DNA of 64,000 nt from an archaeon (lineage in GTDB: Archaea; Asgardarchaeota; Thorarchaeia; Thorarchaeales; Thorarchaeaceae): assembly GCA_024276825.1 (NCBI GenBank), contig JAJRWI010000069.1, positions 32,001-96,000 of the forward strand, in the 5' to 3' direction. Position 1 is the first letter of the stretch; every line of letters starts with the position of its first letter. Below the pieces are notes generated by a model. The model saw only the letters and a program-made list of their open reading frames with translations, was not told the origin of the DNA and made no database searches. A program made the position numbers and the translations under genes. Shown piece after piece: positions 13,926 through 29,636 of the stretch.

Positions 13926-14138
13926 TTAAACAGGCACTTCATCGGCCACTCTCTTAGTAATGGCTCGAATCACTTGTGAGAAGAGTGGATTTCTGCGTTT
14001 GCATTCTTCATGAACCATTCGCAAGAACTTTCTGCAGATCTCCAATAGCTCTCCGTCTGACTTTAGTAGAAAGCCTCTAACAGATATACATACATTACAG
14101 AGTTCATCATCTCTTAGTTTTGACCAATCGATTGGCAT
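13926..14138 (-). CDS. Small hypothetical protein (70 aa, MPIDWSKL...), last gene of the operon
   Basis: ATG at 14138 overlaps the FEN1 stop (TAATG coupling); Cys-containing helical sequence. Confidence 0.6.
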   Translation of the reverse strand: MPIDWSKLRDDELCNVCISVRGFLLKSDGELLEICRKFLRMVHEECKRRNPLFSQVIRAITKRVADEVPV

Positions 14139-15127
14139 TAAAACCAAACCTCCAGAGTTGTTTGATAAGTTCCGAATCTCTTCCATGTTCTGATTATCTC
14201 ACTAGTCAGGATTTCAGCCCTGTCCTCATTCATTACTACATTCAGAATCTTGGTTAGTCGTGAACTCAATGGCGAGCGAAGTTGCAGGTCGCTGGTGTTG
14301 ATAAATAACCGATTGACTTCATCAAAAGTTTCACGCGCACGAATAAACTCTTCGCGCTCACTCTGCAGAAAGCCAAGCGATCTTAAAACATCTTCAAGAA
14401 ACCCGAATCGTTTCAGCAGGATTGCGCCCTTGCGTGGACCTATTCCTTTGACACCCGGCGAGAAATCACAACCCGATAGAATTGCCAGGTCTCTTAATTG
14501 CTCAATGTCTAGGCCTATGGATTTCAACACTGAGTCCAATGTAGTATATTCAACCTCGTCTTTCGAATAACGAATTGATTTGGAAACATGAGGACTACCA
14601 AAGAGAAGTGCATCTACATCATTAGACAAACATGTTCCTGCAAAGCCATCCTTGCATAGTAGGGCTGCAGCCATCTCAGCCTCAGTTGGAGAAGTGATTG
14701 CTGGCACGCCAATTGCAGAACAAATATCCATGATATGGTATGCCGAGAAGTACCATCGCAGAGAAGGACTATCATGGAGACTCTGAACGAGAAAAATATC
14801 CCTTGGATCTTGAGTCCTAGAGAATTCCCTATACAGGTCATTTGCAGTTCGAATCAACTCAGGGTTGGGAGAACGCTTGAGATGTTCAGGGATTCCATCA
14901 AATATGAATACAGGCAGGATATTGCTGGCAAGAGCCTTCTTTATGAAGCCAAGGACAATTGAAACATGAATAGTCGAAATTCTATCTAGAGATTGGATGA
15001 TTCTGTTCTCGATTGAACGAATTCTCTTCATCAAATAGTTAGGGGCATCAATCGCAATCACTGCTGGGTGTATAGTATTGATCTTACCGACCTGCCAGGA
15101 GATGAAGTCCCAGTTCTTAACACCCAT
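14138..15127 (-). CDS. fen: FEN1/XPG-family structure-specific nuclease with C-terminal PIP box
   Basis: MGV...IAIDA, VFIFDG, EAEMAAA, SNDVDALLFG, H2TH LSGCDFSPGVKGIG; PCNA-binding QTTLEVWF. Confidence 0.9.
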   Translation of the reverse strand: MGVKNWDFISWQVGKINTIHPAVIAIDAPNYLMKRIRSIENRIIQSLDRISTIHVSIVLGFIKKALASNILPVFIFDGIPEHLKRSPNPELIRTANDLYREFSRTQDPRDIFLVQSLHDSPSLRWYFSAYHIMDICSAIGVPAITSPTEAEMAAALLCKDGFAGTCLSNDVDALLFGSPHVSKSIRYSKDEVEYTTLDSVLKSIGLDIEQLRDLAILSGCDFSPGVKGIGPRKGAILLKRFGFLEDVLRSLGFLQSEREEFIRARETFDEVNRLFINTSDLQLRSPLSSRLTKILNVVMNEDRAEILTSEIIRTWKRFGTYQTTLEVWF

Positions 15128-15832
15128 CTATACTACCTCCACCCCACTCTTTCTTATTCTTACAACAATTGCAGGGGGTATTCCATGAATAGGACTTTTT
15201 TCAGCAAGGATTCTATAGTAATCCCTTGTTCCCTCAAGAAGCCCCACAAGAAGGGACCAGTCGATATCGTGGGTCAGAACATTTCCACCTATGGGGATTA
15301 TCTTTCCAGAGTCCCAATTGCGTTTTGAGTGCCCCGTTAATAGAATGTGAATATCCATCGAATTGGCAAGTCCCCTCAAGCATTCAAGAGTGTTGAAGAG
15401 TTTGCGTTGCCTTTCTTTCGATCCTGGATTTCCTGATAGGTTCAGAAGATTTGTGAGGTTATCGATTATAAGAAGGAAGAGTAATTCGAATTCTCTTAAT
15501 GATTCTTTGAGCAGTTGGATATCCTCAAGATTTAGAATGTTGGTAAAATGAACCAATCTCATTACTTTCTCAGATTGAGAGGAGTTCTTGCACATGCTTC
15601 TTATTATCCTAGGGTTGTAATTCTTTCCTGAGTCAAGGAACACCACAGACTTTCCTGCCTTTGCAACTTGAACTGCAAGGTTGTGGGCCAACAATGTTAG
15701 AGGTGCTTTGTTAGGTCCGTGAATCAATGTGATCTGATGACTTTGTAGTTGGAATATGCTGTTAAGAACATGAGGCTTCAATGAGATGTTAAGATCATCA
15801 TCAGTTCTTAGTCTATCAAGTGGAATGGCCAT
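15128..15832 (-). CDS. RadA/Rad51 paralog (RecA fold) with degenerate Walker A
   Basis: ITLIHGPNKAPLT (no GKT), VVFLDSG, Walker B LLIIDNL, RQRKL, PIGGNVLTH. Confidence 0.8.
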   Translation of the reverse strand: MAIPLDRLRTDDDLNISLKPHVLNSIFQLQSHQITLIHGPNKAPLTLLAHNLAVQVAKAGKSVVFLDSGKNYNPRIIRSMCKNSSQSEKVMRLVHFTNILNLEDIQLLKESLREFELLFLLIIDNLTNLLNLSGNPGSKERQRKLFNTLECLRGLANSMDIHILLTGHSKRNWDSGKIIPIGGNVLTHDIDWSLLVGLLEGTRDYYRILAEKSPIHGIPPAIVVRIRKSGVEVV

Positions 15833-16787
15833 TCTCTCTCACCCCAGCAGGAATCATTCGAGTATCGCGGTTGATTAGTAATGAACTGATCACATTTGTT
15901 GGCAGCCTTGATACATTGTAGCCTGATACAAAGACATCGGGACATACTGCAATCAGTCCCCCAATTCGGGGAAACAATGTGACATAGTTTGCACCTTCAG
16001 TCAGAAGAACATCAATCAATTTCTGCTCCGGAATGATACAATATCGCCCATGTGCAAGTTCACCCTCATTCTCAATGAGTGGAAGAGCAAGAACAAGCTT
16101 GAGTAGGATTTGACTCCCAATCTCGTAAGGTATCTTGTTTCTTTGGAGCAGGTTATTGATTGTAGCATGCCAGTCCTCGAGATGTTTGGCTCTCAATACC
16201 AAGGCATCAAATTCATCAAGAATTGTCATTGAAACCGGAAGCATCGGACGGTCTCTCATAAGCTGAATAATCTTCATTTCATACTCTTTAGGGATTATGA
16301 ACAGGGCCAATGATGAAGTGCTAATTCTGAGCCAGCTAAAAGTATGCCCTTCCCAAACTGAGTAGAGTTTCATAACGAGAAAGCTGATAAGCGGATAAGA
16401 CCCAAATAACTGGCCCAATATCGAGATTGAACTCTGGGGGTCTTGAACTAATCGCGCTAGCAGGCCGACAAGTGCAACCGCTGCAATCATTGGGACTATT
16501 CCAAAAGGAAGTATGATCAAAGCACTTGCTATTGCCAAGAGAATGACACTTGCCCATGCGATGATGCTAATTAAATTAAACAATAGACCATCTTTATCAT
16601 CAAATTTCCCTGAAATTCGTAACAAGGCTACTGAACAGACTATCAAAACAATTAGAGGAAGATAATCGCCCAGTCTAGCAGCAATCACAATTGAGGACAC
16701 ATATCTGATTAGATGCCCACCCATGAGAATAGCAAAAGCTGCTGCAAATGATAGCCACATCAGACGAAAGCAGTACTTACTGAACAA
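15816..16787 (-). CDS. Membrane protein (~4-5 N-terminal TM helices plus soluble domain)
   Basis: Hydrophobic stretches over aa ~5-145; overlaps both neighbours in the operon. Confidence 0.7.
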   Translation of the reverse strand: MFSKYCFRLMWLSFAAAFAILMGGHLIRYVSSIVIAARLGDYLPLIVLIVCSVALLRISGKFDDKDGLLFNLISIIAWASVILLAIASALIILPFGIVPMIAAVALVGLLARLVQDPQSSISILGQLFGSYPLISFLVMKLYSVWEGHTFSWLRISTSSLALFIIPKEYEMKIIQLMRDRPMLPVSMTILDEFDALVLRAKHLEDWHATINNLLQRNKIPYEIGSQILLKLVLALPLIENEGELAHGRYCIIPEQKLIDVLLTEGANYVTLFPRIGGLIAVCPDVFVSGYNVSRLPTNVISSLLINRDTRMIPAGVRENGHST

Positions 16788-17413
16788 TTCAGATCGCCCT
16801 CCTGTAAGGCACCATCAGGCCTGATAATGACAGAACCATTCTCTTGTATGAGAGTCTCTGCTATCTTATTTCCATTTACCAAGATGCTAGAGATACCAGT
16901 AGGATCTCTTCTAATTTCAAGGTCATTATCACAGAATCTCCTGATGATATCGTAGAGGAGAGGGACATTGTGATCATTGAGAAAACGCATCTCATTGATT
17001 GCAAGAATCTGAAGGTTGGAATTCATAACCAGTGAGGAAAGAGTTGGCATTACCTCTTCTAACATTTCTCTGCCCCATAATGTGGGGTCTTTTCGTCCCA
17101 AGTCCACAGTTCGTGATATCGAGTCTATGACAACTAGCCTTGTGTTGCTGTTGATCAATTTGGGTAGTCGTTGTATCTGCTCTAATGCCTGCCCATGAGC
17201 CATGACGACTGAAACATTTTCTCTCTTGCCATTATTCAGTGATATGTTGTTTCTAAGGGGGTTTAGGAATGACCATTTACCATCCGTGTTCATCCATAGT
17301 ACATGATGATTCACAGTTAGTGGGGCTGCAATGGCAATTGCGAAAAGTGTCTTTCCAGAGCCTGCATCACCCCATACATGAGTCAGGCCTTTCAAATTCA
17401 GCATCATCCGCAA
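16760..17413 (-). CDS. RadB-like short RadA/Rad51 paralog
   Basis: Walker A GDAGSGKT, WMNTD, Walker B LVVIDS, AINE; lacks the N-terminal HhH domain. Confidence 0.82.
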   Translation of the reverse strand: MRMMLNLKGLTHVWGDAGSGKTLFAIAIAAPLTVNHHVLWMNTDGKWSFLNPLRNNISLNNGKRENVSVVMAHGQALEQIQRLPKLINSNTRLVVIDSISRTVDLGRKDPTLWGREMLEEVMPTLSSLVMNSNLQILAINEMRFLNDHNVPLLYDIIRRFCDNDLEIRRDPTGISSILVNGNKIAETLIQENGSVIIRPDGALQEGDLNCSVSTAFV

Positions 17414-17416
17414 ATA

Positions 17417-19045
17417 TCACACCCCCTCCCCAATAGTTGCTTTCGATGTTGGCTTGCTGGATGGGTCGCTTTCTCTGTCATCTTCAACTGCACCTGCGTT
17501 TCTAATTTCGGCTAATACATCTTCAATACTGTCAAGTTCAGAGCCACCTTCAGATGCTGGTTGATCATCGGACATAGTTCCACCATTCTCTGTATCACTT
17601 GCCACAATGACTGGCAAATCGCCCTCCATCCAAGACCTAGTCTGGGCACTAATAGCTTGGATTGATTTCTCCTCGATGATGTCATCAGGGGTCTCCAGCT
17701 CTTCCTCAATTGCTTGCAGAGTATCTCGCAATGACCTGTCATTAAGAACATCATATACTCTATCACGAGCCTCAGGATCGATTAATCCTGCATTGAATAA
17801 TGAACAACTAATCTGGCCTATTATTGCAATGAGCCTTTTTTCAGTCAGGGGCGAAGTGAAATGAGAAGTGATATCGCTATAGATCAATGCAAGTTCTGCT
17901 TCTTCATTGCCATCAAGAGTATATAAAGTTCGGAAGAGACCCAAGAACTTGTCCAAGCCAGTATCGCCTGATGTACTGTGACTATCAATCAGGTTTGGCG
18001 CCGCAAACACACATTCATCTAGAATTGATGACAATAACAAAACAGTCCTCTCAATCTGTCCCGAGGATATTGACTCAGCTGATGAGATTAACAGCGGGGA
18101 TATTATGAAACTCATATCTCCTATGGCCTTCAGAATGGTCTTGTTGTTCGCAATTGCCTGATCAATGCGATAAGAATCAGATAGAGATGCAATGCATGTC
18201 AGTTCATCATTAAAGTTGTTCCAGAACGATGTGATGCGCTTACGGGAGTCCATTAGAAGCCAAGAGCCAAATGCACTGCTTGCAATTGCTGAAACAAGTG
18301 GAATGACGAATAAACTTGATCGATAGATAAATGCTGTAACCAGTGAGAGCAATCCAATTATGCCGAAGATGATTCCAAGAGCTCCATACCATCCCCTAGT
18401 TATTCCTGCTTTCAAATAGTCCCACTTTTCAGGAATAACATTTTCATAAAGATCAGATAGAAACGCTCTATTATCGCTGTTAATCGCCGGCACAAAGGTT
18501 TCTCTGTTGACAACTCTTCGAGAGTCAGTCAACCAAGAGAGATCAAAGGATGGTCTTACATCATCTATCACAACATAGACAGTCTTGGTCGGGTAAATGG
18601 CCGACCGCTTCATACTTTTGTTAGACACAAAGAGGGGGATTTTGACATTACCCAAGGGTATTCGGATTTTGAACTCATCGAGATTTATGTCCAAGTCCAC
18701 ATCAGATAATGTTTCATGAAGATTCCTGCTGATTACATCCAGCACCCTTGATTTCAGAGCAAGCACTGATCTACCGAATTGAGCTCTTTGAAGATCAAGC
18801 ACATATGTGATGTCAACATGCACTCCGCGTGTAGAAGGCATTCGGTTAAGCCTTACAGCAAGAATCAGCCCATTGTCATAAACGTTTACTCGATAGCCCA
18901 ATCGTTTTAATGATTCTTCAAGGTCATAGAGTTCGGTGTTTATGACCTCATTCTCATTTTCTAGGGCTTGGTCTTCATCAGCCCTTTCAGTTTTCTCTTT
19001 AATTTTCATTTTCAGAAGCCTCCAATTTTCCGAATCTTCTATCAA
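17417..19045 (-). CDS. Hypothetical membrane protein (2 central TM helices, acidic C-terminal tail)
   Basis: TM segments WYGALGIIFGIIGLLSLVTAFIY and LFVIPLVSAIASSAFGSWLL; 542-aa ORF within the operon. Confidence 0.7.
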   Translation of the reverse strand: MIEDSENWRLLKMKIKEKTERADEDQALENENEVINTELYDLEESLKRLGYRVNVYDNGLILAVRLNRMPSTRGVHVDITYVLDLQRAQFGRSVLALKSRVLDVISRNLHETLSDVDLDINLDEFKIRIPLGNVKIPLFVSNKSMKRSAIYPTKTVYVVIDDVRPSFDLSWLTDSRRVVNRETFVPAINSDNRAFLSDLYENVIPEKWDYLKAGITRGWYGALGIIFGIIGLLSLVTAFIYRSSLFVIPLVSAIASSAFGSWLLMDSRKRITSFWNNFNDELTCIASLSDSYRIDQAIANNKTILKAIGDMSFIISPLLISSAESISSGQIERTVLLLSSILDECVFAAPNLIDSHSTSGDTGLDKFLGLFRTLYTLDGNEEAELALIYSDITSHFTSPLTEKRLIAIIGQISCSLFNAGLIDPEARDRVYDVLNDRSLRDTLQAIEEELETPDDIIEEKSIQAISAQTRSWMEGDLPVIVASDTENGGTMSDDQPASEGGSELDSIEDVLAEIRNAGAVEDDRESDPSSKPTSKATIGEGV

Positions 19046-21209
19046 TCAACAGTTTCAATTGACGAGCATTCTCAGACACCTGTACTAGTCCACCATGTTG
19101 GGCTATGACAGATATGCAATACAGCAGCCACTTGGCATTCTCAAGAATGAATATCAGATCCCCATAGGAGATCGAGTACATCTTTGAGATGTCATGCAGG
19201 GGTATTGAAGTGGTTGCAACCTGCCCAATGAATTGTTCAAAATCAATCTCGAGCTTTTTGCCAGTTTCAAGTCGAGTCAAATGATGAACAAGCCAGAATA
19301 ATTGAGAGTTATTCTCGATGATTGGCAATATAACAATCATCTCACGAAAAGTATTCGTGCGTAAATAGAGTTTATTTACAAGACGTCCAAGATGAGTTGG
19401 TCTCAGTTTACCATCAATCGAACCCTCGACTAGACCCAACCTTATCAGACTTCTAGCTGGGCTTGATTCACTTAGCGCTAGGGGGATGATATAATTAGCA
19501 TTGTCGGGATGCTGTTGAACTGCGGACACACCAAGTGAAACCAGATGCGGGCAGAGAATGCCATTCTTCATTAACGGTTGTCCGCATGAGCAGGTTGGTC
19601 CTTCGATTAGATTATTGGAGGAGGTACGGATTGAGAATCTGCAAGTCACACTGCCTCCCGGAATGCCCGAAACCAGTCCCCCAATAACGGTGGGACTGAT
19701 CTCGCGAATCTCCACTCGTCCTAGAACACCCTCTTTTGCCGCTTTTAGAGTCGATGATATACTATGGCGTTCTATGGCCTTAATTGCAGTGATTTCACCA
19801 AGTTCGAGTATCCGAGATGGAGAGTTGATATCACGAACACTGGTAAATGCAAGAAATGAGTTTCCAAGAAAGCCATGTTCTATTGAGTCAAGAGTCGATT
19901 CACCAACAAAGTCAAGAGCGACGAGCAATTGGTCGGTGAGGTCATTTGCAATCTGACTGTGAATCTGTTCATATTTTGGAATCAGAATTATATTTCCTGC
20001 ATCATCCTGAACATTGTCAAAATATGACTCAACGATTCTTTGAGCTTCGCCCCTGCTGCCAGCAAGAATAATGCCAAAGCCCTTTAGATCCTTTCCAGGC
20101 CGTCCTGCTCTTCCCAGCATTTGATGAACAAGATTTGCAGGCAACAATTGAGTGCTGACACCAGGCTGGTTCACATTAGTAATCACAACTGTTCTTGCGG
20201 GCAGGTTCATTCCAGCAGCAAGAGTTGTAGTTGCGCTGATGACCTTAATGAGACCTCTTTCAAACAGGTCTTCAATAAATAAGCGAGTTTTGGAATTCAT
20301 TCCCGCATGATGGAATGCAACACCATCATGGATCAGTGGAGTCAAATCAGGAGCAATCTGAGAACCCCAATTAGACACACCACCGACTTCACTATCGAGC
20401 TCTATTTTTTCCCTACGGGTCAGTTGTCTGCCAACTTCATTAGCAATACGTTTCGCTGTTGCTTCGGCCTCTCGTCTGGTTCTGTTGAAGATTATCAATT
20501 GGCCATTGCTCTGAACGGTAGTCATTATGATTTCCCGAGCCAGACGGGTTCGGTCTGAAGTCGAAATGACCCTATTAACAAGTGGTACTGGTCGTTCTGT
20601 ATGAGTAATGAGCTTGCAGTCAAGCCATTCAGCAAGCTCATCTGGAGCAGCAATTGTTGCTGATAGCGCAATAATCTGAACATCCGATATTATACGTTTC
20701 AACCGAATAATCAGGCTTTCAAGACGTGATCCTCTCTTGCCTTGAGAGAGAGTCTGTATCTCATCAATCACAACTGCACCAATCTCAGATAGCCAAGAGG
20801 TTCTGTGGCGAAATAACGAGTCGGCCCTCTCATATGTCATCACTATGATGTCATTATCTGCCAGTTCATCACCATTCATGTAATAATCGCCCGTTGAGAG
20901 AGCAATCTTGATCTGCTCGCTGGCATACTTTGCCCATAGCTCATTAGCAATCTGTGTAGCCAATGCTCGTAATGGGACAAGGTAAATGCCTTTGGAACCG
21001 TCAATTACTGCACGCAACAGGGCCATTTCACCAATGAGGGTCTTGCCTGAACCAGTGGGAGAGCAAATCATTAGGCTCTCGCCATCAAGCACTCCTTCCT
21101 CAATCGCTCGCACCTGCACTCCTCTGGGAGTGACCCCTATTGTACTTAGTATTCTTTTGATCTCTTGAGCAGTGTCAATTACGGCCACCAACTCACACCC
21201 CTCCCTCAA
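18999..21209 (-). CDS. Hel308/HelQ (Ski2-like) SF2 helicase with inserted SWIM zinc finger
   Basis: SPTGSGKT, VPLRALA, DEIQ, LSAT, FHHAG, TLAAGMNLPAR, QMLGRAGR; CSCx10CPH SWIM motif. Confidence 0.9.
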   Translation of the reverse strand: MREGCELVAVIDTAQEIKRILSTIGVTPRGVQVRAIEEGVLDGESLMICSPTGSGKTLIGEMALLRAVIDGSKGIYLVPLRALATQIANELWAKYASEQIKIALSTGDYYMNGDELADNDIIVMTYERADSLFRHRTSWLSEIGAVVIDEIQTLSQGKRGSRLESLIIRLKRIISDVQIIALSATIAAPDELAEWLDCKLITHTERPVPLVNRVISTSDRTRLAREIIMTTVQSNGQLIIFNRTRREAEATAKRIANEVGRQLTRREKIELDSEVGGVSNWGSQIAPDLTPLIHDGVAFHHAGMNSKTRLFIEDLFERGLIKVISATTTLAAGMNLPARTVVITNVNQPGVSTQLLPANLVHQMLGRAGRPGKDLKGFGIILAGSRGEAQRIVESYFDNVQDDAGNIILIPKYEQIHSQIANDLTDQLLVALDFVGESTLDSIEHGFLGNSFLAFTSVRDINSPSRILELGEITAIKAIERHSISSTLKAAKEGVLGRVEIREISPTVIGGLVSGIPGGSVTCRFSIRTSSNNLIEGPTCSCGQPLMKNGILCPHLVSLGVSAVQQHPDNANYIIPLALSESSPARSLIRLGLVEGSIDGKLRPTHLGRLVNKLYLRTNTFREMIVILPIIENNSQLFWLVHHLTRLETGKKLEIDFEQFIGQVATTSIPLHDISKMYSISYGDLIFILENAKWLLYCISVIAQHGGLVQVSENARQLKLLIDRRFGKLEASENEN

Positions 21210-23493
21210 CTGTTAGCGCCTGACGAAGTGCCATGGTACCTTTCAGAGTAATGCGATAGTTCGAATAGTTCACTCCATTGAGAAACTCGTGTCCACGCAA
21301 GATCATGTTTGCCTGTTCCAGTTGAATAAGCAGGCTTTCAATATCATCAATCTCTACGCCACTAGTTTGAATGAACTTCTTGAGCGCCTCAACTGTGAGG
21401 GGCTCGTACCGTTCGAGAAGCTGTAGAACTTGAGCTGCAAGATTAGATCTCTCACCAGTGACAAATGCAAGTACACCTGATTCTGCCGCCATTGATGGTT
21501 GTTCTGAAGTTCCAATCATACTCAAGCGTCTGGACGTGATGTCTGACTCAGAGGGAGTGTGCAACTTTAATGGTGGACCAAGCTTTAAAGGAACACATGT
21601 ATCAGGGTTCGAATCTACGAGAAGTGCATGCTCCTTTTTCATGGTGCGCAGATAAGAGCTCTCACGTGATGATATTCGTGCCTTACTATGAATCGAGTCG
21701 ACCACCGACAGGCCTAACATATCAGACATGACCTTGATGTCTTGAGAACTCTTCAGCCTGAAGGCAAGGCAAGAACTGAACAGATCTAATAGATGTTGAA
21801 GTTCCGATGGATTTCTTATGCTTAACATTAGAGGGCCACGCCTGAGCATGTCAGTGATCAATCTATGAGTCCATAAACCCCGACTACGGTCATGCAGTTT
21901 CAGCAGAAGATTTAGAGGTTCGTCTAGAATTATTACGACATTCTTGTCCTTTGTGAGGGCTGATATCTTTATCATGAAAAGGTCCCATGCAAATGTGTCA
22001 AGTTCATTGGAGTTCAAGTCTATTAGCATGACAGTAAGTGGGAACTCGGTCAACTTAGCCATCTTTGCAGTCTGGATACCATAAAAGGCACGAGCCCCGA
22101 TTCCGCGATGGAGAACACGGACTGCCTCAAACCCATCAAGTGAGGCCCTGGAGGGAGAGTCATCCGCTGTTATCGTGGGTTGGTCTTCATTGTGGAGAAG
22201 AGTGATGTCTGCTACAGTTCCTCCGTTCAATGCCACAGCTCTGCTTAGGGCATCCTCAAAGTGTGATGCAGAACTGAGTGCTGAAGAGCATATCACTTCA
22301 AGTGCGGTTTTCAATCTGGGCACAAACTCGTGCCTTGGAATGTTCTCAGCATCAACGGGATTCAAGACAAAGTCTTTTCCCAGGGTCAGACCAAGTGAAT
22401 TGTTGGTCAATGATAATAGAGACATTGCTCTTCTGTTATTTGTCAAAATTATCACATGCTTTCCGGACCTCAATATCTGAGGAATCAAAAGACTGTAGGC
22501 ATGAAATCTATCAGACCACTCACCACCAGTAATTAGAACTCCATTCAAGAGGTCATCATCTGTGAAGCCTACTATAGGCCCAGTCTGCAATGTTTCGGGA
22601 TTGATTATCACACCCAATTGATAGTCGCACTGCTTGGCACGAACGGGCGAGATGAATTCGCCAGGAATATTGGCCCCCACTTCCGGAGCGAGTTCTGAAA
22701 CCAATTGAATGGTCCATTCTGATAACTCACGACCGAGAGCATAGAATCGTGGTGTACCATCTAATATCCTGCATTCATTCACCCATTTGGCAAGCCGCTT
22801 GCCGCTCATTCTCTTCAGCCCGTGCTCAGGAATGGAGCCTCGAACTGCAGAGTCAAAGTATCGAGTTTCGTTCTCATTCAATGTTTGACCAAGTATTGTA
22901 AGACCTGTCTTCCACAAACCACCCTTCGAAATAATGATGTCTGATGGTGCCCTATGAAAACGCCTACTAAAAAATGGCAGTGGAAAACGCTTCAGTTTAT
23001 TTCTGTTGACAATTACTGCATTGTTCTCAGGTACCAAAGAAACAGTGAATGAGAAGCCAGAACTTGTATCAAGTGCTCTAATAAGCTTGGACAGGTTTCC
23101 TGCTAGGCGGGGAGGTTGCTTAAGTTCTAGGCCAAGTAAAAGAGTCTGAGGACCTGCACCCTCGAACTCTACCTCTCTTTTTCTAGGACCAAGGAATATC
23201 TCAGACACTTTCAAGTTGCATAGGCCAGCCTCTTGAAGCTTGGACTCGTCAGACCTCATTCGAAGACTAAATAGAAACATAGTGATTGCAGTTGCAAATA
23301 ATAGGACAACAACATGATTTAATGTTATAAAGATGAAACTATAGATGGATGCTACAAGCAATAGATCGAAGAGTGGGTTGCTTCTGATTCGTCTATCGCA
23401 CAACCGAGCCTTTCCAGAGGGTCTTAGTTGCATCCTGCCCTCATAGGTTATCTCGTGAGTGTCTATCAATGACGAGTTCCATCTAGATATCAT
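21193..23493 (-). CDS. Membrane-anchored HerA/FtsK/VirB4-like P-loop protein with degenerate Walker A and C-terminal wHTH
   Basis: Two N-terminal TMs. GVLITGGEWSDR at the Walker A position, FVLNP motif, Walker B IILDEP, HerA-like 'CLAFRLKSSQDIKVMSDMLG'. C-terminal 'YRITLKG' wHTH. Confidence 0.65.
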   Translation of the reverse strand: MISRWNSSLIDTHEITYEGRMQLRPSGKARLCDRRIRSNPLFDLLLVASIYSFIFITLNHVVVLLFATAITMFLFSLRMRSDESKLQEAGLCNLKVSEIFLGPRKREVEFEGAGPQTLLLGLELKQPPRLAGNLSKLIRALDTSSGFSFTVSLVPENNAVIVNRNKLKRFPLPFFSRRFHRAPSDIIISKGGLWKTGLTILGQTLNENETRYFDSAVRGSIPEHGLKRMSGKRLAKWVNECRILDGTPRFYALGRELSEWTIQLVSELAPEVGANIPGEFISPVRAKQCDYQLGVIINPETLQTGPIVGFTDDDLLNGVLITGGEWSDRFHAYSLLIPQILRSGKHVIILTNNRRAMSLLSLTNNSLGLTLGKDFVLNPVDAENIPRHEFVPRLKTALEVICSSALSSASHFEDALSRAVALNGGTVADITLLHNEDQPTITADDSPSRASLDGFEAVRVLHRGIGARAFYGIQTAKMAKLTEFPLTVMLIDLNSNELDTFAWDLFMIKISALTKDKNVVIILDEPLNLLLKLHDRSRGLWTHRLITDMLRRGPLMLSIRNPSELQHLLDLFSSCLAFRLKSSQDIKVMSDMLGLSVVDSIHSKARISSRESSYLRTMKKEHALLVDSNPDTCVPLKLGPPLKLHTPSESDITSRRLSMIGTSEQPSMAAESGVLAFVTGERSNLAAQVLQLLERYEPLTVEALKKFIQTSGVEIDDIESLLIQLEQANMILRGHEFLNGVNYSNYRITLKGTMALRQALTVEGGV

Positions 23494-23780
23494 GGGCCCC
23501 TCCTAATCATCGATTGCGAGAGGATCTCAAGAATACGGCTGAAATGCCTTACATGATTCTCATCACCATCCCAGATGAACAGCTTGCGATGGATAATTGA
23601 GATTGAAGGCATATTATTCTTTGACGATTCTCCATGAGCGACAATTTTGGGTAGTTTAACCAGTACTCTCCAGCTATAACCATGACCTGATTGCAGTACT
23701 GACATCAGTTGATCAATGTCGAGAAATGGCGAGATATCAAGTGCTTCACTAGCATTTGACTTCAATCTCAACACCTCCAT
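23490..23780 (-). CDS. Small hypothetical protein
   Basis: 96-aa ORF; its stop overlaps the next ATG (ATGA). Confidence 0.55.
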   Translation of the reverse strand: MEVLRLKSNASEALDISPFLDIDQLMSVLQSGHGYSWRVLVKLPKIVAHGESSKNNMPSISIIHRKLFIWDGDENHVRHFSRILEILSQSMIRRGP

Positions 23781-24339
23781 TAACCATGAGCATCATCTGA
23801 TCGAGTGTGGCCTTAGTGATGGGAGTATGAGGATAAGCAGCTCTCATCGCACCCTCCAGAACATAAGACACAATCTCAATTTTCTTCACTAACGAGTCAA
23901 GAAACCTCCCCACCCCAAATATACGGGAAGTTCTTCCAATAACCATCATTCCAACGGTAGTACTCGAAGAGCTCATTGGTCTTACCACTACAAACCTGAG
24001 CTCAAACTTCGCCCAATCTTTGGCGTGAAGACTCATTGCCTCAAGAACCTTCGCTGAAGAATGTGACAGGTCTATGCCAATTGGTATACTACTGAATATC
24101 CGTGCGCTATATACTTCGATATGCCAAGGACGAAGATTTACCAGCATTTTGCCGCCCTTGTCCCAAAATATCACAGAACGACCGCCATGCTTCCTGTAGA
24201 TATAGGCCACTAGAAAGAGGCCAGTTAGTCCCAAGGAACTCTCAATAAGTCCCATTATACTGCTCAATATCAGAGAGCGGAGAAGTAATGCAGAAGCAAT
24301 AAAACCAAGTAGATATTTCGCAGAGAAAGTCCTCGACAT
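23749..24339 (-). CDS. Hypothetical membrane protein (2 N-terminal TMs)
   Basis: Hydrophobic N-terminus; start abuts the xpd stop. Confidence 0.65.
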   Translation of the reverse strand: MSRTFSAKYLLGFIASALLLRSLILSSIMGLIESSLGLTGLFLVAYIYRKHGGRSVIFWDKGGKMLVNLRPWHIEVYSARIFSSIPIGIDLSHSSAKVLEAMSLHAKDWAKFELRFVVVRPMSSSSTTVGMMVIGRTSRIFGVGRFLDSLVKKIEIVSYVLEGAMRAAYPHTPITKATLDQMMLMVNGGVEIEVKC

Positions 24340-26301
24340 TCATATCGACCCCCTGTTGCCGCTAATGAATGTTTCAATAGCAGACACCATCTCATCCTTA
24401 CTCTCAAAGGGCCAAATATCGGAGATAATGTCAGATCCGAAAACATTCAGATAATTGTGAAATCGTTTATCGAAGAGGATCACTATTCCTCTATCTGTGG
24501 GGCTACGCCGTAGGCGGCCAATTAGTTGAGCAACTCGGCGTATTGACGGGACTACTATGGAATAGTAATAGCCCGAACCAGATCCATACCGTTCGTCAAA
24601 CCATAACTGAAGTGCCCTATGAAAACTAGTAGGTGGAGAAAAGGGTATACCAACACCAATGATGAGGTTAATCTGTGATGAACCATCCTTTACTAGATCG
24701 ATACCCTCGCTGAACTTCCCGCCATAGACTGCGAAGATTGCATGCGGTGTTTCATCAACTGCCCTCCGCAGATCATCCAATTGTGCCTTGGGATCCTCTA
24801 CAATTCTGCTTCTGTGCCCGCAGTCAATGTTATAGCTGAGAACCTCATTCATTATTCTATAGCTTGGGAATGCAACCAGTGCGCTCTTATTAGCTGGAGT
24901 AGTCGTTAATGCAACGCTTATTCGTTCTGCAATGGCACGCCAGAGTTCAGAACCTCGTTCGGTATACTTGGTGGTCAAGTGCTTGTCAAGCAATACTAAT
25001 CGAGTTCCTTTCTCATAAGGGCTCGTGAGATGTGCTGTACGGGCACTTGGAATCCCAAGGAGTGATGCATAATGATTTAACGGATTAAGAGTGCCAGACA
25101 TCAAGAGAGCTGACCGGGCACCTCTCAGTATTGGTGTTGTGAATCCCATTGCATTAAGAGGACGGGCTTTTAACACTGCATTCTCAATTGAGACCGATCT
25201 ATCCCATGAACGTGATAGTTCTATTGTGATGTGCCAGTCATTACTCAGAGTCGCCCGATGTCCAGCCTGAAGAATATCAAACAATCGTTCCAGTGGAGTG
25301 CTCGAATACGACTCGCCATCCGTTGGATCAGAATTGTCTTGATTTCTATAGAGCAATTGAGCAAGCTCATCCATATCCACAAATCGGGGCAATATCTCCC
25401 AGCGATTAAGAGCATGTTCGTTCTTGTTCCGGATCTTGTCGAGATTCAGCATGAATGTTTCCCAGAGAAAATCAATGACATCGAATAGCCACGAGGCATT
25501 CGTAGTCACATCGAGAGCATCACGGTTCTCTTTCAACCATAGAAGATCCTTGCCTGAAATCTGGGCAGATTCTACCTCCAGAACATGATCAGCAAGGTTG
25601 TGTGCCTCATCAACAATGAGGTCTATGTCTGACAGATCGACATTTAGAGCCCTCAGAAACGCATTTCTAACTCGCTCTTGAAACAAGTATGAATAGGGAC
25701 CAATTACCACCCTGCTATTGCGTGCTGACCACCGAAGAACTTCGTAGGGACAATAGCCAGATGAGAATGAGAGGTTCTCAGCGGTTTCTTGGGTGACAAC
25801 GTCGCCATTCAAAGTATTGACAAGGTCATCCCTAGCGGACTCTCTGAGCTTCAGATTGCCTGAGTTCGAGTTCCCAATAAACATGTTATAATAATAGTTG
25901 CATTCACCTGAACGTATCATTGCAGCACAGCCACGGGTGAATCCTGCCACAGAAGTCTGCTGAATCTCAGCCTTCATAGGACAGACATGGATTCTCGAGA
26001 CCATGCTTGTTGCTGTCAGATGAAATGAGAGTTTCTTCGCTGCTTCTGTTTCATTCAACACACGAAGTTCGGACTCAAACACGCAGGCCTGAGAATGAGT
26101 TCGTGTGAGTACTATTAACTTGGACTCGGGATCATTTGCACGTGCTGCAAAGTAACCCGAGAGAACCGCAATTGTCTTGCCAACACCACAATCTGCTGAG
26201 AGCAAGCCCACTGTCTTCTGCTTAAATACCTGTGTGGCAAAGCGAATTGCATGGTCTTGATGAGGACGGGGTTTGTATGGAAACCATGCCATTGCATCCA
26301 T
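24340..26301 (-). CDS. xpd: XPD/Rad3/DinG-family Fe-S 5'-3' DNA helicase
   Basis: Q motif FPYKPRPHQ, DCGVGKT, four Cys (HVCP, RGCA, GECN, YCPY), DEAHNL, MSGTL, FSEGID, QLIGRLRR, LFDKRF. Confidence 0.93.
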   Translation of the reverse strand: MDAMAWFPYKPRPHQDHAIRFATQVFKQKTVGLLSADCGVGKTIAVLSGYFAARANDPESKLIVLTRTHSQACVFESELRVLNETEAAKKLSFHLTATSMVSRIHVCPMKAEIQQTSVAGFTRGCAAMIRSGECNYYYNMFIGNSNSGNLKLRESARDDLVNTLNGDVVTQETAENLSFSSGYCPYEVLRWSARNSRVVIGPYSYLFQERVRNAFLRALNVDLSDIDLIVDEAHNLADHVLEVESAQISGKDLLWLKENRDALDVTTNASWLFDVIDFLWETFMLNLDKIRNKNEHALNRWEILPRFVDMDELAQLLYRNQDNSDPTDGESYSSTPLERLFDILQAGHRATLSNDWHITIELSRSWDRSVSIENAVLKARPLNAMGFTTPILRGARSALLMSGTLNPLNHYASLLGIPSARTAHLTSPYEKGTRLVLLDKHLTTKYTERGSELWRAIAERISVALTTTPANKSALVAFPSYRIMNEVLSYNIDCGHRSRIVEDPKAQLDDLRRAVDETPHAIFAVYGGKFSEGIDLVKDGSSQINLIIGVGIPFSPPTSFHRALQLWFDERYGSGSGYYYSIVVPSIRRVAQLIGRLRRSPTDRGIVILFDKRFHNYLNVFGSDIISDIWPFESKDEMVSAIETFISGNRGSI

Positions 26302-26316
26302 TGCAGCGACAATCAG

Positions 26317-26934
26317 TCAGGCTCCCCCCATTCTAATGCATGACTCGGTACGATGCACTCTGAAACGTATTGAAAAATAGGAATATAGGAGATTATAGAA
26401 CTTCATTAATAATGTTGGTGAGTCATAGAATCGCTCTTTTCGAGCCATCCTCTCAACTATTCTCTTGCTAAATCCGTTCTTCTTTGCAGTTTCCCAGAAG
26501 TAGACCTCTATATCCTTCATTGTTGACAGATGATGGACGATTGTCTTCACTAGGAGATTAGTCAATAGTTCAATGGCCTTTCTTGCATTATGCGGTAAAT
26601 TAGATGCTCTTATGCTCATGGGCAAATAGACTGGTACACCATCAAGACTATCGTAATAAATCTCCCGTGGCACACCCTTGCTGCTTCGTAAGGTTTCCAG
26701 CAGTGAGAGTATTCTTGGAAGTTGGGGCAAGATTGGTTTTGATATGTCACGATCGCGCCACTCAATCTTCGTCAAGACGTGCAGCTCTGGGTCAGGCTCT
26801 TGTTCAGCATCAATTGCAAGTACAGTTATTCTATGATTAGTGTCTCTCAATTGAAGGTTAATCAGATTCAGAATTGAGATCCATGAGTGTGAAGTATCTC
26901 TTACAAATGCATCATGTTTCACCGCAACACTCAA
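26317..26934 (-). CDS. Hypothetical protein
   Basis: 205-aa ORF with 4-bp overlap to the upstream gene. Confidence 0.6.
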   Translation of the reverse strand: MSVAVKHDAFVRDTSHSWISILNLINLQLRDTNHRITVLAIDAEQEPDPELHVLTKIEWRDRDISKPILPQLPRILSLLETLRSSKGVPREIYYDSLDGVPVYLPMSIRASNLPHNARKAIELLTNLLVKTIVHHLSTMKDIEVYFWETAKKNGFSKRIVERMARKERFYDSPTLLMKFYNLLYSYFSIRFRVHRTESCIRMGGA

Positions 26935-27377
26935 ACAATCTCACCCCGCACAATTCCAATAAGATTATCATCCTTGAACAGGACTTCTTCCTCTATGAGT
27001 TTGTGAAGCATTTTACTTGACTTTGTAAGCGAGAATCCAAGAATGGTGGCCTCTCGTAGGACATCTTCAATGGGCACAGGCCAGCCACGGTTGAGTTCGA
27101 GCAGGGACTCGACAATCTCAATCAATGTTCGTCTTATCCCAAGACCATAGTGAATCTTGGGGGCTTTCCGTTCCCTCCTCTTCTGATGAACTAGGTCCCG
27201 GACCAGTTCTTCAGCTTCAATGGTTGTTGCAGCATAGAGTGTCCCAGGCTCGTCGATAATTACAGCGGAGCAGAGAGAACAGTGTGAAGACTCGTGCTCG
27301 TTCTCAATTCTTACAAAACCAATATTGTTGCATTTGGGACATTGATATACTCTGAACATTCCCCGCTCCTGATGCAT
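26931..27377 (-). CDS. Zn-ribbon plus winged-helix protein
   Basis: CPKC...CSLC; C-terminal PIEDVLREATILGFSLTKSSKMLHKLIEEEVLF resembles an MCM C-terminal-type WH; TAATG coupling to radA. Confidence 0.65.
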   Translation of the reverse strand: MHQERGMFRVYQCPKCNNIGFVRIENEHESSHCSLCSAVIIDEPGTLYAATTIEAEELVRDLVHQKRRERKAPKIHYGLGIRRTLIEIVESLLELNRGWPVPIEDVLREATILGFSLTKSSKMLHKLIEEEVLFKDDNLIGIVRGEIV

Positions 27378-28420
27378 TAGGCAACTGCCTCCTGCTCGAT
27401 CTCTTTAAGCACAGCCTGATGGTCGCATCCCCTAGATCTCAGATACTTCAGAATTGCGTCCTGCATGTTATCCTTCTCTTTTGCATTCTCATAAAACCCC
27501 CCCCAACCTAGCTTGAGAGTCAGCTCAAACTCAGGCACTCCGGCATTATCCTGTAAAGCGATCTTTCTCTGATCATCCTTTCCAACCTTTAGATTAAACC
27601 TATAGTCAGAAGCATGCGAAAGAATGTGACCCCCAGATGGTGCATTAAGGCTGGATGAAAACTGTGAGATTTTGGACATCACTTGATTTGTATAAACGAA
27701 TATTGCTTCGGTTGCAGCGGCTGTTCTTCGCATTAGACTCAGCAGCTTATTCATCTTTTGCTGTCGTATTCTAAGGCTGTCAAGACCTGTGTACTCCGAA
27801 CGGAACAGTCCAGTAAATGAGTCGATTATGACAAGCTTGTAATTCTCACGAGCTAACAGGTTTGGGATGTTTTCGAAGCGCTCTTGAATTTGTGAACTGT
27901 CTATTATCGTGGCATGTCCAATATTTCCCAGAGCTACTTCTGGGTCTAGACCACGTCGATAGGCCATCGCCCTGATAATCCATGGTTTGAATGCCCTTTC
28001 AGTGTCTAGCCACAACACACGGCCTTCAAGCCCACCATCTTTGAGAGGAAGCTGTACCATAATAGCAAGCATTGCGCACCATTGCGTCTTTCCAGCACGT
28101 GCTTTGCCAAATAGTTCAACAATGGATCCTAACTCAATGCCACCCCAGAGGTGTTTATCGAGTTTGCTAACCCCTGTTGACAACCGTGGTTTTAATTCAA
28201 GTTCGCGCTCAACTTCGAGACCTGAACGAAATTCAAATTTGCCAATGACCTTTCGCGCTGCCCTTACTATTGAGACCGCTTTGCCAGGTCCAATATTAGT
28301 TCTGGCATTGAGCTCATCAGGGTTCTGCACGGCCAGCAATTCTGCTGTGGTGATGAAGGCGGCCTCTAGCTTCTTGGCAATAGCGGGACCTATGCCAGGT
28401 ACTGCTTCAAGCTCGGTCAT
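27377..28420 (-). CDS. radA: Full-length RadA/Rad51-family recombinase (divergent paralog)
   Basis: N-terminal HhH (VPGIGPAIAKKL), GKARAGKTQ, LDTERAF, LVIIDS, FRSEY..RQQK, TNQV, GGHILSH. Confidence 0.9.
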   Translation of the reverse strand: MTELEAVPGIGPAIAKKLEAAFITTAELLAVQNPDELNARTNIGPGKAVSIVRAARKVIGKFEFRSGLEVERELELKPRLSTGVSKLDKHLWGGIELGSIVELFGKARAGKTQWCAMLAIMVQLPLKDGGLEGRVLWLDTERAFKPWIIRAMAYRRGLDPEVALGNIGHATIIDSSQIQERFENIPNLLARENYKLVIIDSFTGLFRSEYTGLDSLRIRQQKMNKLLSLMRRTAAATEAIFVYTNQVMSKISQFSSSLNAPSGGHILSHASDYRFNLKVGKDDQRKIALQDNAGVPEFELTLKLGWGGFYENAKEKDNMQDAILKYLRSRGCDHQAVLKEIEQEAVA

Positions 28421-28878
28421 GGCAATGCCTCCATGATGTCGTCAAAAAGCGGGCCAATTATTGTGACCAAGTTGAGAAATCCTTGGAGAGCATCAAAAAG
28501 AACAAGAACATCATCATTGTTAATGACAACAAGGTCAGACAGGAGCATAAGCAAGTCAGAGTGGTATTCACCTGCTATTCCCAACTTGATGCCAATGTCT
28601 GTAAGTGTGCCTGCTACGCTCACATAGCCACCAATGTAGTCAAAAAGAGAACCCTGCAAGTATCTGTTCAATAACGCGTTTTCGGGACTGATTGGATCAA
28701 TATCATCCCACCAATTTACGAAACTCTCAACTTCAGAATAGAATTGCATCCATTCTTTGGAGAACTTTAGATGCTTCATTTCAGCCAGTGCAGTCTTTGC
28801 GCCAATTAACCAAGCTTCAGGCAGGCCCAACTCCATGTGGTTCCCCATTGCGTGTTTGGCATATCTAGCAAACATCAT
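28417..28878 (-). CDS. Hypothetical protein
   Basis: Likely start MMFARY at 28878 (ATGA overlap with upstream stop, GGAGG upstream); ATGA overlap with radA. Confidence 0.6.
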   Translation of the reverse strand: MMFARYAKHAMGNHMELGLPEAWLIGAKTALAEMKHLKFSKEWMQFYSEVESFVNWWDDIDPISPENALLNRYLQGSLFDYIGGYVSVAGTLTDIGIKLGIAGEYHSDLLMLLSDLVVINNDDVLVLFDALQGFLNLVTIIGPLFDDIMEALP

Positions 28879-29636
28879 ATCGCCTCCACGGGTGAACTTG
28901 TACATTTGGACGAATGAGTTTCAATTGAGAGTTCATCCAACCAGTATAGGAGTTCTTGAACAAGAGGGGTTTCAATCTCATCTCGCGAAAGAACAGAGTA
29001 GATTAGGCCCTTTGCCGCATTCTTCACTGTTTGAAGAGCTAGACACCGCTCACCATCATCTAGATGGGGATATCGTGGACCCGTTTCAAAGTTCGAAACC
29101 TCCCCAAGAAAGTCACGCCAATCCAGATGCCAATAGCCAACATAAGGGTCATTATTGAGAATGCGTTCAAGAATCTTTGAGAACTCTTCCCACTTGTTCA
29201 TAAAGCGAATAACAGATTGTGCAAGAGTCCTGGCCCAGTTCTCTTTTTTTGTGGTTGCTGCCTGAAAAACGAGTTTGACATAGGTTCCAGAAGAACGGGT
29301 TTCGAGAACAGCCATTTGCAGATTGCGTGGATGCTTAGAGGCAATCAATGAGATAAGTGGAACTATACCAAAAAGATTGCAGAGAACAAACGAATACTTG
29401 CTTAGATCAATAACGGTGGTATCATTCACAAGAATACAATCTCGCAGCCCAAACACCAGACTGACCATTCCGGTATTGTCATTTTCATCAATTACATAAC
29501 GCGCAGACTCGAGATACCAATCGCCGCGAGAGAACGGAATTGCAAACCCCAGAGTGATGTCATACTGGCCATCCACCAATCTTCCTTTGCGGTCCATGAA
29601 TATATGTTCAAGATCGTCTATCAATAGCTCACCCAC
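28875..29636 (-). CDS. Hypothetical protein, first gene of the 16-gene operon
   Basis: 253-aa ORF with GTG start; AT-rich promoter region upstream. Confidence 0.65.
   Translation of the reverse strand: MGELLIDDLEHIFMDRKGRLVDGQYDITLGFAIPFSRGDWYLESARYVIDENDNTGMVSLVFGLRDCILVNDTTVIDLSKYSFVLCNLFGIVPLISLIASKHPRNLQMAVLETRSSGTYVKLVFQAATTKKENWARTLAQSVIRFMNKWEEFSKILERILNNDPYVGYWHLDWRDFLGEVSNFETGPRYPHLDDGERCLALQTVKNAAKGLIYSVLSRDEIETPLVQELLYWLDELSIETHSSKCTSSPVEAI

Follow-up and report, generated by a model that had tools for sequence, protein, structure and literature searches.

A membrane-anchored VirB4/HerA-fold protein with a degenerate P-loop and a winged-helix tail in a recombination operon of Thorarchaeota

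We analysed a stretch of 64,000 nucleotides (the window) from an archaeon of the Thorarchaeaceae (Asgardarchaeota; assembly GCA_024276825.1, contig JAJRWI010000069.1, positions 32,001 to 96,000 of the forward strand). The subject is g766, a gene for a membrane protein of 766 aa that lies in an operon of 15 genes, together with two small genes, g196 and g96, and with genes for helicases, recombinase paralogs and a flap endonuclease (Table 1). The order of the operon is g253, g162, a RadA paralog, g148, g205, XPD, g196, g96, g766, Hel308, g542, g217 (RadB/KaiC-like), g323, g234 (Rad51-like) and FEN1. We find that g766 combines a transmembrane (TM) anchor, a VirB4/HerA-like domain without the motifs of a motor and a winged helix-turn-helix (wHTH) tail. 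It is probably a non-catalytic descendant of a membrane ATPase of the VirB4/CedB type.

An earlier note on this DNA, made from the sequence alone, had described three coupled open reading frames (ORFs) of 196, 96 and 766 aa. The ORF coordinates on the minus strand and the tight junctions bear this out. The stop codon of the XPD gene and the start codon of g196 meet in TGAATG, g196 and g96 overlap by 32 nt, and the stop of g96 and the start of g766 share ATGA, with AGGAGG immediately 5' of it. At its other end, g766 is overlapped by the Hel308 ORF by 17 nt. Hydropathy places one TM hairpin in g766 and another in g196 (aa 7-45), which accounts for the two TM segments that had been seen in each of these proteins. 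Basic residues on the two sides of the g766 hairpin suggest that both of its ends are cytoplasmic.

Table 1. Features of the g766 operon (positions in the window)
Feature	Position	Strand	Remark
15-gene operon	14138-29636	-	no intergenic gap above 15 nt
g766, 766 aa, membrane-anchored VirB4/HerA-fold putative pseudo-ATPase with C-terminal wHTH	21193-23493	-	
TM hairpin of g766, aa 38-80	23254-23382	-	hydropathy; long helix 40-88 in the model
N-terminal alpha/beta module of g766, aa ~91-283	22645-23223	-	
VirB4/HerA-like P-loop domain with helical insert, g766 aa ~284-660	21514-22644	-	
Degenerate P-loop GGEWSDRF, g766 aa 323-330	22504-22527	-	Arg at the Walker A Lys position, no Ser/Thr
Walker B-like strand VVIILDE, g766 aa 519-525	21919-21939	-	
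Basic loop HSKARISSRE, g766 aa 602-611	21661-21690	-	conserved, low model confidence
C-terminal wHTH of g766, PadR/MarR type, aa ~674-763	21205-21474	-	
g96, 96-aa soluble protein	23490-23780	-	ATGA-coupled to g766; invariant GHGYxW core
g196, 196 aa, TM hairpin and alpha/beta domain	23749-24339	-	apparent detached paralog of the g766 N-module
XPD/Rad3-type helicase paralog	24340-26301	-	directly upstream of g196; Pfam DEAD_2, Helicase_C_2
Hel308-type helicase paralog	18999-21209	-	directly downstream of g766; NCBIfam and Pfam
RadA paralog	27377-28420	-	
FEN1	14138-15127	-	
g542, central TM hairpin	17417-19045	-	no family match
g323, four to five N-terminal TM segments and a soluble domain	15816-16787	-	no family match

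An AlphaFold2 (AF2) model of g766 was built on 24 orthologs. Its mean predicted local distance difference test score (pLDDT) is 72.6, with means of 10-residue blocks of about 86-95 across residues 310-420. The model shows a core alpha/beta P-loop fold with the strand order of the FtsK-HerA superfamily and a helical insert, and the two-domain architecture of VirB4, an N-terminal domain (NTD) followed by a C-terminal domain, is present. The best structural match is the C-terminal domain of VirB4 (4ag6_B; score 28.4, root mean square deviation 2.7 Å over 320 aa, model residues 283-644), followed by DndH-C (25.3), HerA (24.3), TrwB (21.9) and FtsK (16.5). Full-length TrwK was matched with a score of 20.4 (7.1 Å over 440 aa, model residues 91-659 onto chain residues 205-805); thus, part of the N-domain of g766 is VirB4-like as well. 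Furthermore, the family profile matches HerA (8xau) with an E-value of 3e-6 over the region from Walker B to the QRPS motif, which confirms the HerA-like C-terminal motifs claimed in the earlier note. From the structural matches together with the sequence match to HerA, we conclude that g766 has an FtsK-HerA superfamily fold that is closest to VirB4. The earlier classification, which hinged on a structural match to this superfamily, therefore stands.

Curated protein families gave no such assignment. Scans of Pfam and NCBIfam returned no family at E <= 1 for g766 and ten of its distant relatives, and the Pfam models CagE_TrbE_VirB, AAA_10 and DUF87 do not match g766. PF01935 (DUF87/HerA-type) matches six other genes in the genome, which are canonical ones. 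Unlike HerA, g766 is membrane-anchored, its motifs are dead, and an alpha/beta module stands behind its TM hairpin (the N-module), with no HAS-barrel N-domain recognised. We rejected the reading of g766 as the HerA of a HerA-NurA pair, in which HerA is the translocase for DNA end resection, because it has neither the DUF87 signature nor the HAS barrel, and none of its neighbours matches NurA.

The P-loop segment of g766 reads ITGGEWSDRF (aa 321-330) and contains no GK[ST], as had been noticed before. In the model, the P-loop strand spans residues 319-322 and the following helix residues 326-342. A hidden Markov model (HMM) alignment to HerA sets GGEWSDRF on GSTGSGKS, in a stretch that is low-scoring and non-significant. 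By this alignment, with which the strand-loop-helix position in the model agrees, R329 takes the place of the Walker A Lys and F330 that of the Ser/Thr. The conservation of the motifs was counted over 79 relatives that are 450 aa or longer. Of these, 77/79 have Arg at position 329 and just as many conserve G323; at position 330 they have R, F or L, and Ser or Thr never predominate there. A few divergent family members are also without the P-loop Arg. In a second sample, which comprised 44 family ORFs from loci across many Asgard families, no GK[ST] Walker A was found; the unrelated DUF87 paralog of the genome has one. The orthologs thus share the dead Walker A, and its loss extends across the whole family.

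The second motif gives a mixed result. The Walker B of g766 reads VVIILDEP (aa 519-526), so that the intact IILDEP of the earlier note is present in g766 itself; it is, however, a feature of the lineage only, as position 524 is Asp or Glu in 73/79 relatives, whereas the catalytic position 525 is acidic in just 43/79. The Arg of the HerA QRPS motif aligns to N561, where the family consensus is H/R/Q/S/N, and only the P-S is retained. With the Lys-Ser/Thr pair gone and the Glu and the sensor Arg unconserved, the P-loop domain appears no longer able to bind or hydrolyse ATP canonically. The protein is nevertheless well conserved: 46 columns are invariant across the 24 orthologs, which have 33-63% identity, and the ORFs are intact at every locus. 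This argues for purifying selection on the family. Conservation extends to a basic loop with the pattern HSKARxSxRE (H602 in 64/79, K604 in 59/79, R606 in 75/79 and R610 in 57/79 relatives), where the pLDDT is below 50 over residues 595-610; this loop is a candidate contact for DNA or a partner.

The conserved remnants of the catalytic site could also be read as those of a nucleotide-dependent switch or slow motor, in which GGxxxxR and the Walker B Asp would bind nucleotide or phosphate non-canonically and gate the assembly. The frequencies of R329, G323 and D/E524 indicate more constraint than a functionless site would show, and g766 itself retains the D-E pair. However, no Ser/Thr for Mg2+ follows the P-loop Arg, and the residue that precedes it is acidic or polar instead of Gly. 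The poor conservation of position 525 and of the QRPS Arg, and the loss of the P-loop Arg in the divergent members, also speak against a switch, which we consider unlikely.

The last ~90 residues of g766 were modelled as helix-helix-helix-strand-strand-helix. Among 30 relatives, this tail is matched by the Pfam families PadR (10/30, best E 2.4e-5, all under the Pfam gathering scores), HTH_34 (six relatives) and HTH_24 (two relatives, best E 2.4e-7), and the profile matches the PadR-like structure 3l7w (E 7.9e-5). The tail is a PadR/MarR-type winged helix, and the terminal wHTH of the earlier note is thus seen by model topology, Pfam and profile match alike. The layout of FtsK/SpoIIIE is analogous to that of g766, with an N-terminal TM anchor, a linker, a P-loop translocase fold and a C-terminal winged helix (the gamma domain).

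As the tail resembles PadR/MarR regulators, g766 might instead be a membrane-tethered transcription regulator or sensor, whose winged helix would sit on an operator of the operon and whose dead ATPase domain would serve in sensing or oligomerisation. Membrane-tethered regulators are known, and an accessory cassette would plausibly require regulation. However, the 212 nt that precede the operon contain no inverted repeat, and winged helices also act as non-specific handles for DNA or protein, as in the gamma domain of FtsK. Furthermore, a VirB4-like architecture, paired N-modules and a phylum-wide linkage to Hel308 would be excessive for a regulator. We find this explanation quite improbable.

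The two small ORFs that precede g766 are conserved genes: homologs of g96 and g196 stand directly upstream of the g766 ortholog in 24/24 Thorarchaeota locus entries, which include a few duplicates of one genome. The homologs of g96 were drawn from these loci because a word-indexed homolog search returned g96 alone. Hydropathy detects no TM segment in g96. The protein g196 contains the invariant motifs SVPIGIDL and AYPH. Neither of the two has a significant match in Pfam or NCBIfam, and a profile search of PDB sequences returned nothing for either. A comparison of g96 to g766 with hhalign was non-significant (E 0.19). Foldseek of the g196 model likewise gave no significant match (best E 5.8e-3), with weak rows for YbjN and TrwK only. 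In the AF2 model of g196 (pLDDT 80.7), the order of the secondary-structure elements is that of the NTD of g766.

We further predicted a complex of three chains, g766 residues 1-290, g96 and, as the scored partner, g196. The interface score (ipSAE) for g196 was 0.75, and the best of three controls reached 0.00. A score of 0.75 is reached by 58/80 solved complexes and 2/110 mismatched pairs, counts that are only a rough guide here because custom alignments and three chains were used. The runs share at least 81% of their contacts, and the pLDDT of the partner is at least 77. In the predicted interface the two TM hairpins pack against each other, and two corresponding strands of the modules, residues 147-154 in g766 and 113-120 in g196, form an antiparallel pair. 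It is thus predicted that g196 binds the N-module of g766. The protein g96 lies outside the confident interface of this model, and the scoring covered g196 alone.

The N-module is arranged differently in other Asgard archaea. In six loci (L053-L057 and L062) it is split off: an HMM of g766 aa 1-290 matches separate TM-hairpin genes of 235-325 aa (E 6.5e-8 to 3.5e-5) directly upstream of short homologs of ~530 aa, which consist of the P-loop domain and the wHTH only, without TM and N-module. Conversely, 21 loci of the Asgard family f22 (L060, L061 and L063-L081) encode long forms of ~1230-1400 aa with two TM hairpins that are ~240 residues apart (start to start). The two modules of the long form are homologous to each other (hhalign Prob 98.9, E 3.9e-17), and the second one matches the N-module of Thorarchaeota (E 2.5e-5). 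An HMM of g196 matches N-modules in three loci (E 1.2e-4 to 4e-3). From the long and split arrangements together with the predicted heterodimer, we infer that the N-terminal platform consists of two modules, the first of which (module 1) is g196 in detached form. The earlier note had treated the 196-aa ORF as a generic small partner; it looks instead like a paralog of the N-module of g766 that has become detached, for which the sequence link is weak and the argument from arrangement weighs most. The long form would then be a natural fusion of g196-like and g766-like parts. Given its apparent paralogy to the N-module of g766 itself, we also rejected the alternative that g196 is a VirB3-like small gene.

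Two further observations concern the surroundings of these variants. Small genes of about 100-160 aa with one to three TM segments lie upstream of the split pairs; they could be pilin- or VirB3-like. At two Lokiarchaeota-type loci (L006, 7694-10141, and L058, 6019-8496), a second ORF of ~815-825 aa with terminal TM segments, which is not matched by the g766 query, lies near the VirB4-like gene.

The operon surrounding g766 is conserved as well. The order of the 15 genes is identical in the compared Thorarchaeota loci, which represent several genera. Next to the g766 ortholog there is a Hel308 gene at every Thorarchaeota locus, and at 8/13 loci of other Asgard archaea one lies no more than about 10 kb away. 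In most loci of Asgard archaea other than Thorarchaeota, a gene for Hel308, FEN1 or a RadA-like protein is found within about 10 kb. Several of the operon enzymes are second copies. The other copy in the genome scores higher for RadA (328.7 bits compared to 190.8 for the operon copy), FEN1 (93.9 compared to 70.8) and XPD (104.1 compared to 82.2); the better-scoring RadA lies about 6 kb before the start of the window on the same contig, and the better-scoring XPD on another contig. A second Hel308-like gene elsewhere in the genome has 41% identity to the operon copy. Apart from g196 and g766, hydropathy also finds TM segments in the operon members g253, g162, g542 and g323.

With regard to its distribution, the family profile matches 303/400 Asgard genomes at E <= 1e-5, with strong matches in many families; weak matches may represent other HerA-like genes. 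The labels on named homologs are Thorarchaeota, apart from one that reads Lokiarchaeota and one that reads Hodarchaeota. A distant homolog of ~847 aa (P0075, at locus L003) has a context like that of a defence island or mobile element, unlike the Thorarchaeota operon; its neighbours are N6/N4 methyltransferases, an MvaI/BcnI-type restriction enzyme, a tyrosine-recombinase-like gene and an SIR2-TPR protein.

VirB4-like genes mostly reside on mobile elements, and g766 could thus be a decaying, functionless remnant of a conjugative element or virus that had integrated. The setting of P0075 among methyltransferase, restriction-enzyme and tyrosine-recombinase-like genes and the patchiness of the cassette within the family would fit a relic. 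However, the ORFs are intact and contain positions that are invariant across genera, and the 15-gene synteny is strict. The operon is flanked by housekeeping genes (PheRS, TopoVI, metabolism), the 64-kb window contains neither a tRNA nor an integrase, and its GC content is uniform. That g766 is such a remnant is highly improbable, and we rejected this reading.

Among the flanking genes, several deserve a brief description. A solute-binding protein of the SBP_bac_5 type (29849-31792), whose two ends bear hydrophobic segments, is encoded between the TopoVI genes and the operon, from which it is separated by the only sizeable gap, the AT-rich 212 nt mentioned above. The TopoVI-A/Spo11 gene (31783-33912) has about twice the usual length and encodes N-terminal helix-hairpin-helix repeats of the HhH_5, DUF4332 and Cdd1 types, followed by TP6A_N and Toprim. 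Furthermore, a giant protein of 2608 aa (3986-11812) with a prenyltransferase toroid, MG2/MG4, Big_1/Big_3_5 and filamin repeats resembles alpha-2-macroglobulin; at L002 and L007, too, the operon has a giant gene of this sort at its flank.

[quoted passage not shown] CedB and CedD combine TM segments, an NTD and a VirB4-like ATPase domain in a DNA-import system, and their NTDs map onto different parts of the VirB4 NTD (PMC11868833); Ted loci carry HerA and Rad50 too (PMC9905601). Compared by the published description (PMC11868833), g766 resembles CedB, CedD and TedB in being archaeal and chromosomal and in joining TM segments and an NTD to a VirB4/HerA-like domain. By the same description, g196 and g766 appear to share the N-domain between two proteins in the manner of CedB and CedD. 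The link to recombination is a further similarity to Ced/Ted. Unlike CedB and CedD, which are described as ATPases that power import, the g766 family is without the motifs. The wHTH tail and the operon with XPD, Hel308, RadA and FEN1 paralogs are features of g766 that Ced/Ted do not have.

VirB4, TrwK and TrbE (PDB 4ag5/4ag6, 7o43, 8rtd) are inner-membrane ATPases of type IV secretion, VirB4 being the motor with which bacteria drive DNA transfer by ATP. The differences of g766 from them concern the catalytic residues, as g766 has no Walker A Lys-Ser/Thr and its Glu and sensor Arg are unconserved, as well as the architecture, as g766 has a TM hairpin of its own and ends in a wHTH. Furthermore, g766 is chromosomal and lies within a recombination operon, in whose proteins Pfam identified none of the partners VirB2, VirB3, VirB6, VirB8 and VirD4.

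Overall, the most likely role of g766, and a probable one, is that of a passive hub, derived from a Ced/VirB4-like protein, where DNA is handled at the membrane, because the motor motifs are lost, the tail is of a DNA-binding type, a small partner is predicted and the operon encodes second-copy recombination enzymes. The TM hairpin and the alpha/beta N-module would keep the VirB4-like domain on the inner side of the membrane, and the N-module would pair with g196 via the TM hairpins and strands. As g196 appears to be a second copy of the N-module, g196 and g766 would jointly make up the two-module platform for which other Asgard lineages use a single polypeptide. By analogy with its relatives, the assembly is presumed to be an oligomeric ring, which may hold DNA through the winged helix and the conserved basic loop. 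The hub would organise the dedicated Hel308, XPD, RadA paralog and FEN1 of the operon as well as its other membrane proteins, so that DNA would be processed at the membrane, most plausibly during chromosomal DNA exchange or uptake that feeds recombination, as in Ced/Ted. The suggestion of the earlier note that g766 is a scaffold or conduit rather than a motor is a reasonable one given the loss of the motifs. Its proposal that the XPD and Hel308 helicases supply the force remains speculation, based on their conserved adjacency only.

Several observations weigh against a membrane hub of this kind. The operon yielded neither a VirB6/CedA-like channel nor a VirB2-like or CedA1/TedC pilin; its sole candidate for a channel subunit is the polytopic g323, for which an atlas look-up gave no usable match. 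The near-invariant P-loop Arg and the largely retained Walker B Asp denote constraint at the site, which could mean residual binding of nucleotide or phosphate and not a purely structural role. PadR-type winged helices are typical of transcription factors. In sequence comparisons with hhalign, g196 has no significant match to full-length g766 (E 0.14) and a weak one to the first module of the long form (E 0.009). Lastly, ~23/75 matching genomes of the Thorarchaeota family are only weakly matched, nine of which are at least 90% complete; this patchy presence marks the cassette as accessory and not essential.

A more far-reaching version of the hub is possible, if rather doubtful. It holds that g766 forms a VirB4-derived ring that has become the passive membrane portal of a Ced/Ted-like system for chromosomal DNA exchange or import that spans the Asgard phylum, in which the SF2 helicase paralogs Hel308 and XPD, of opposite polarity and docked on the ring, would provide the force and the DNA would be passed to the private set of RadA paralog and FEN1.

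A full-text literature search returned no description of the g766 family or the operon, and the database names of the family members are all 'hypothetical protein', with no curated family match. The fold and the general kind of protein, a VirB4/CedB-like membrane protein, are already known. What is new is an Asgard variant with an apparently dead motor and a wHTH tail, which is found inside a recombination operon and whose N-module is split, fused or duplicated. Because the N-module is detached, fused or duplicated depending on the lineage, the logic of its subunits is directly testable.

The g766 family would extend VirB4-derived membrane machinery from Crenarchaeota to Asgard archaea, the closest known relatives of eukaryotes, and would do so in an unexpected form: a motor protein that is retained for its shape and not for its chemistry, and that is tied to a second set of recombinase, helicase and flap endonuclease. 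It would also be a clear example from nature of how a ring-ATPase fold can turn into a pseudo-enzyme scaffold. If the operon indeed serves DNA exchange and recombination, the closest relatives of eukaryotes would possess a prokaryotic module that couples the two, which would bear on gene flow and ultimately on sex-like recombination in the archaeal lineage ancestral to eukaryotes.

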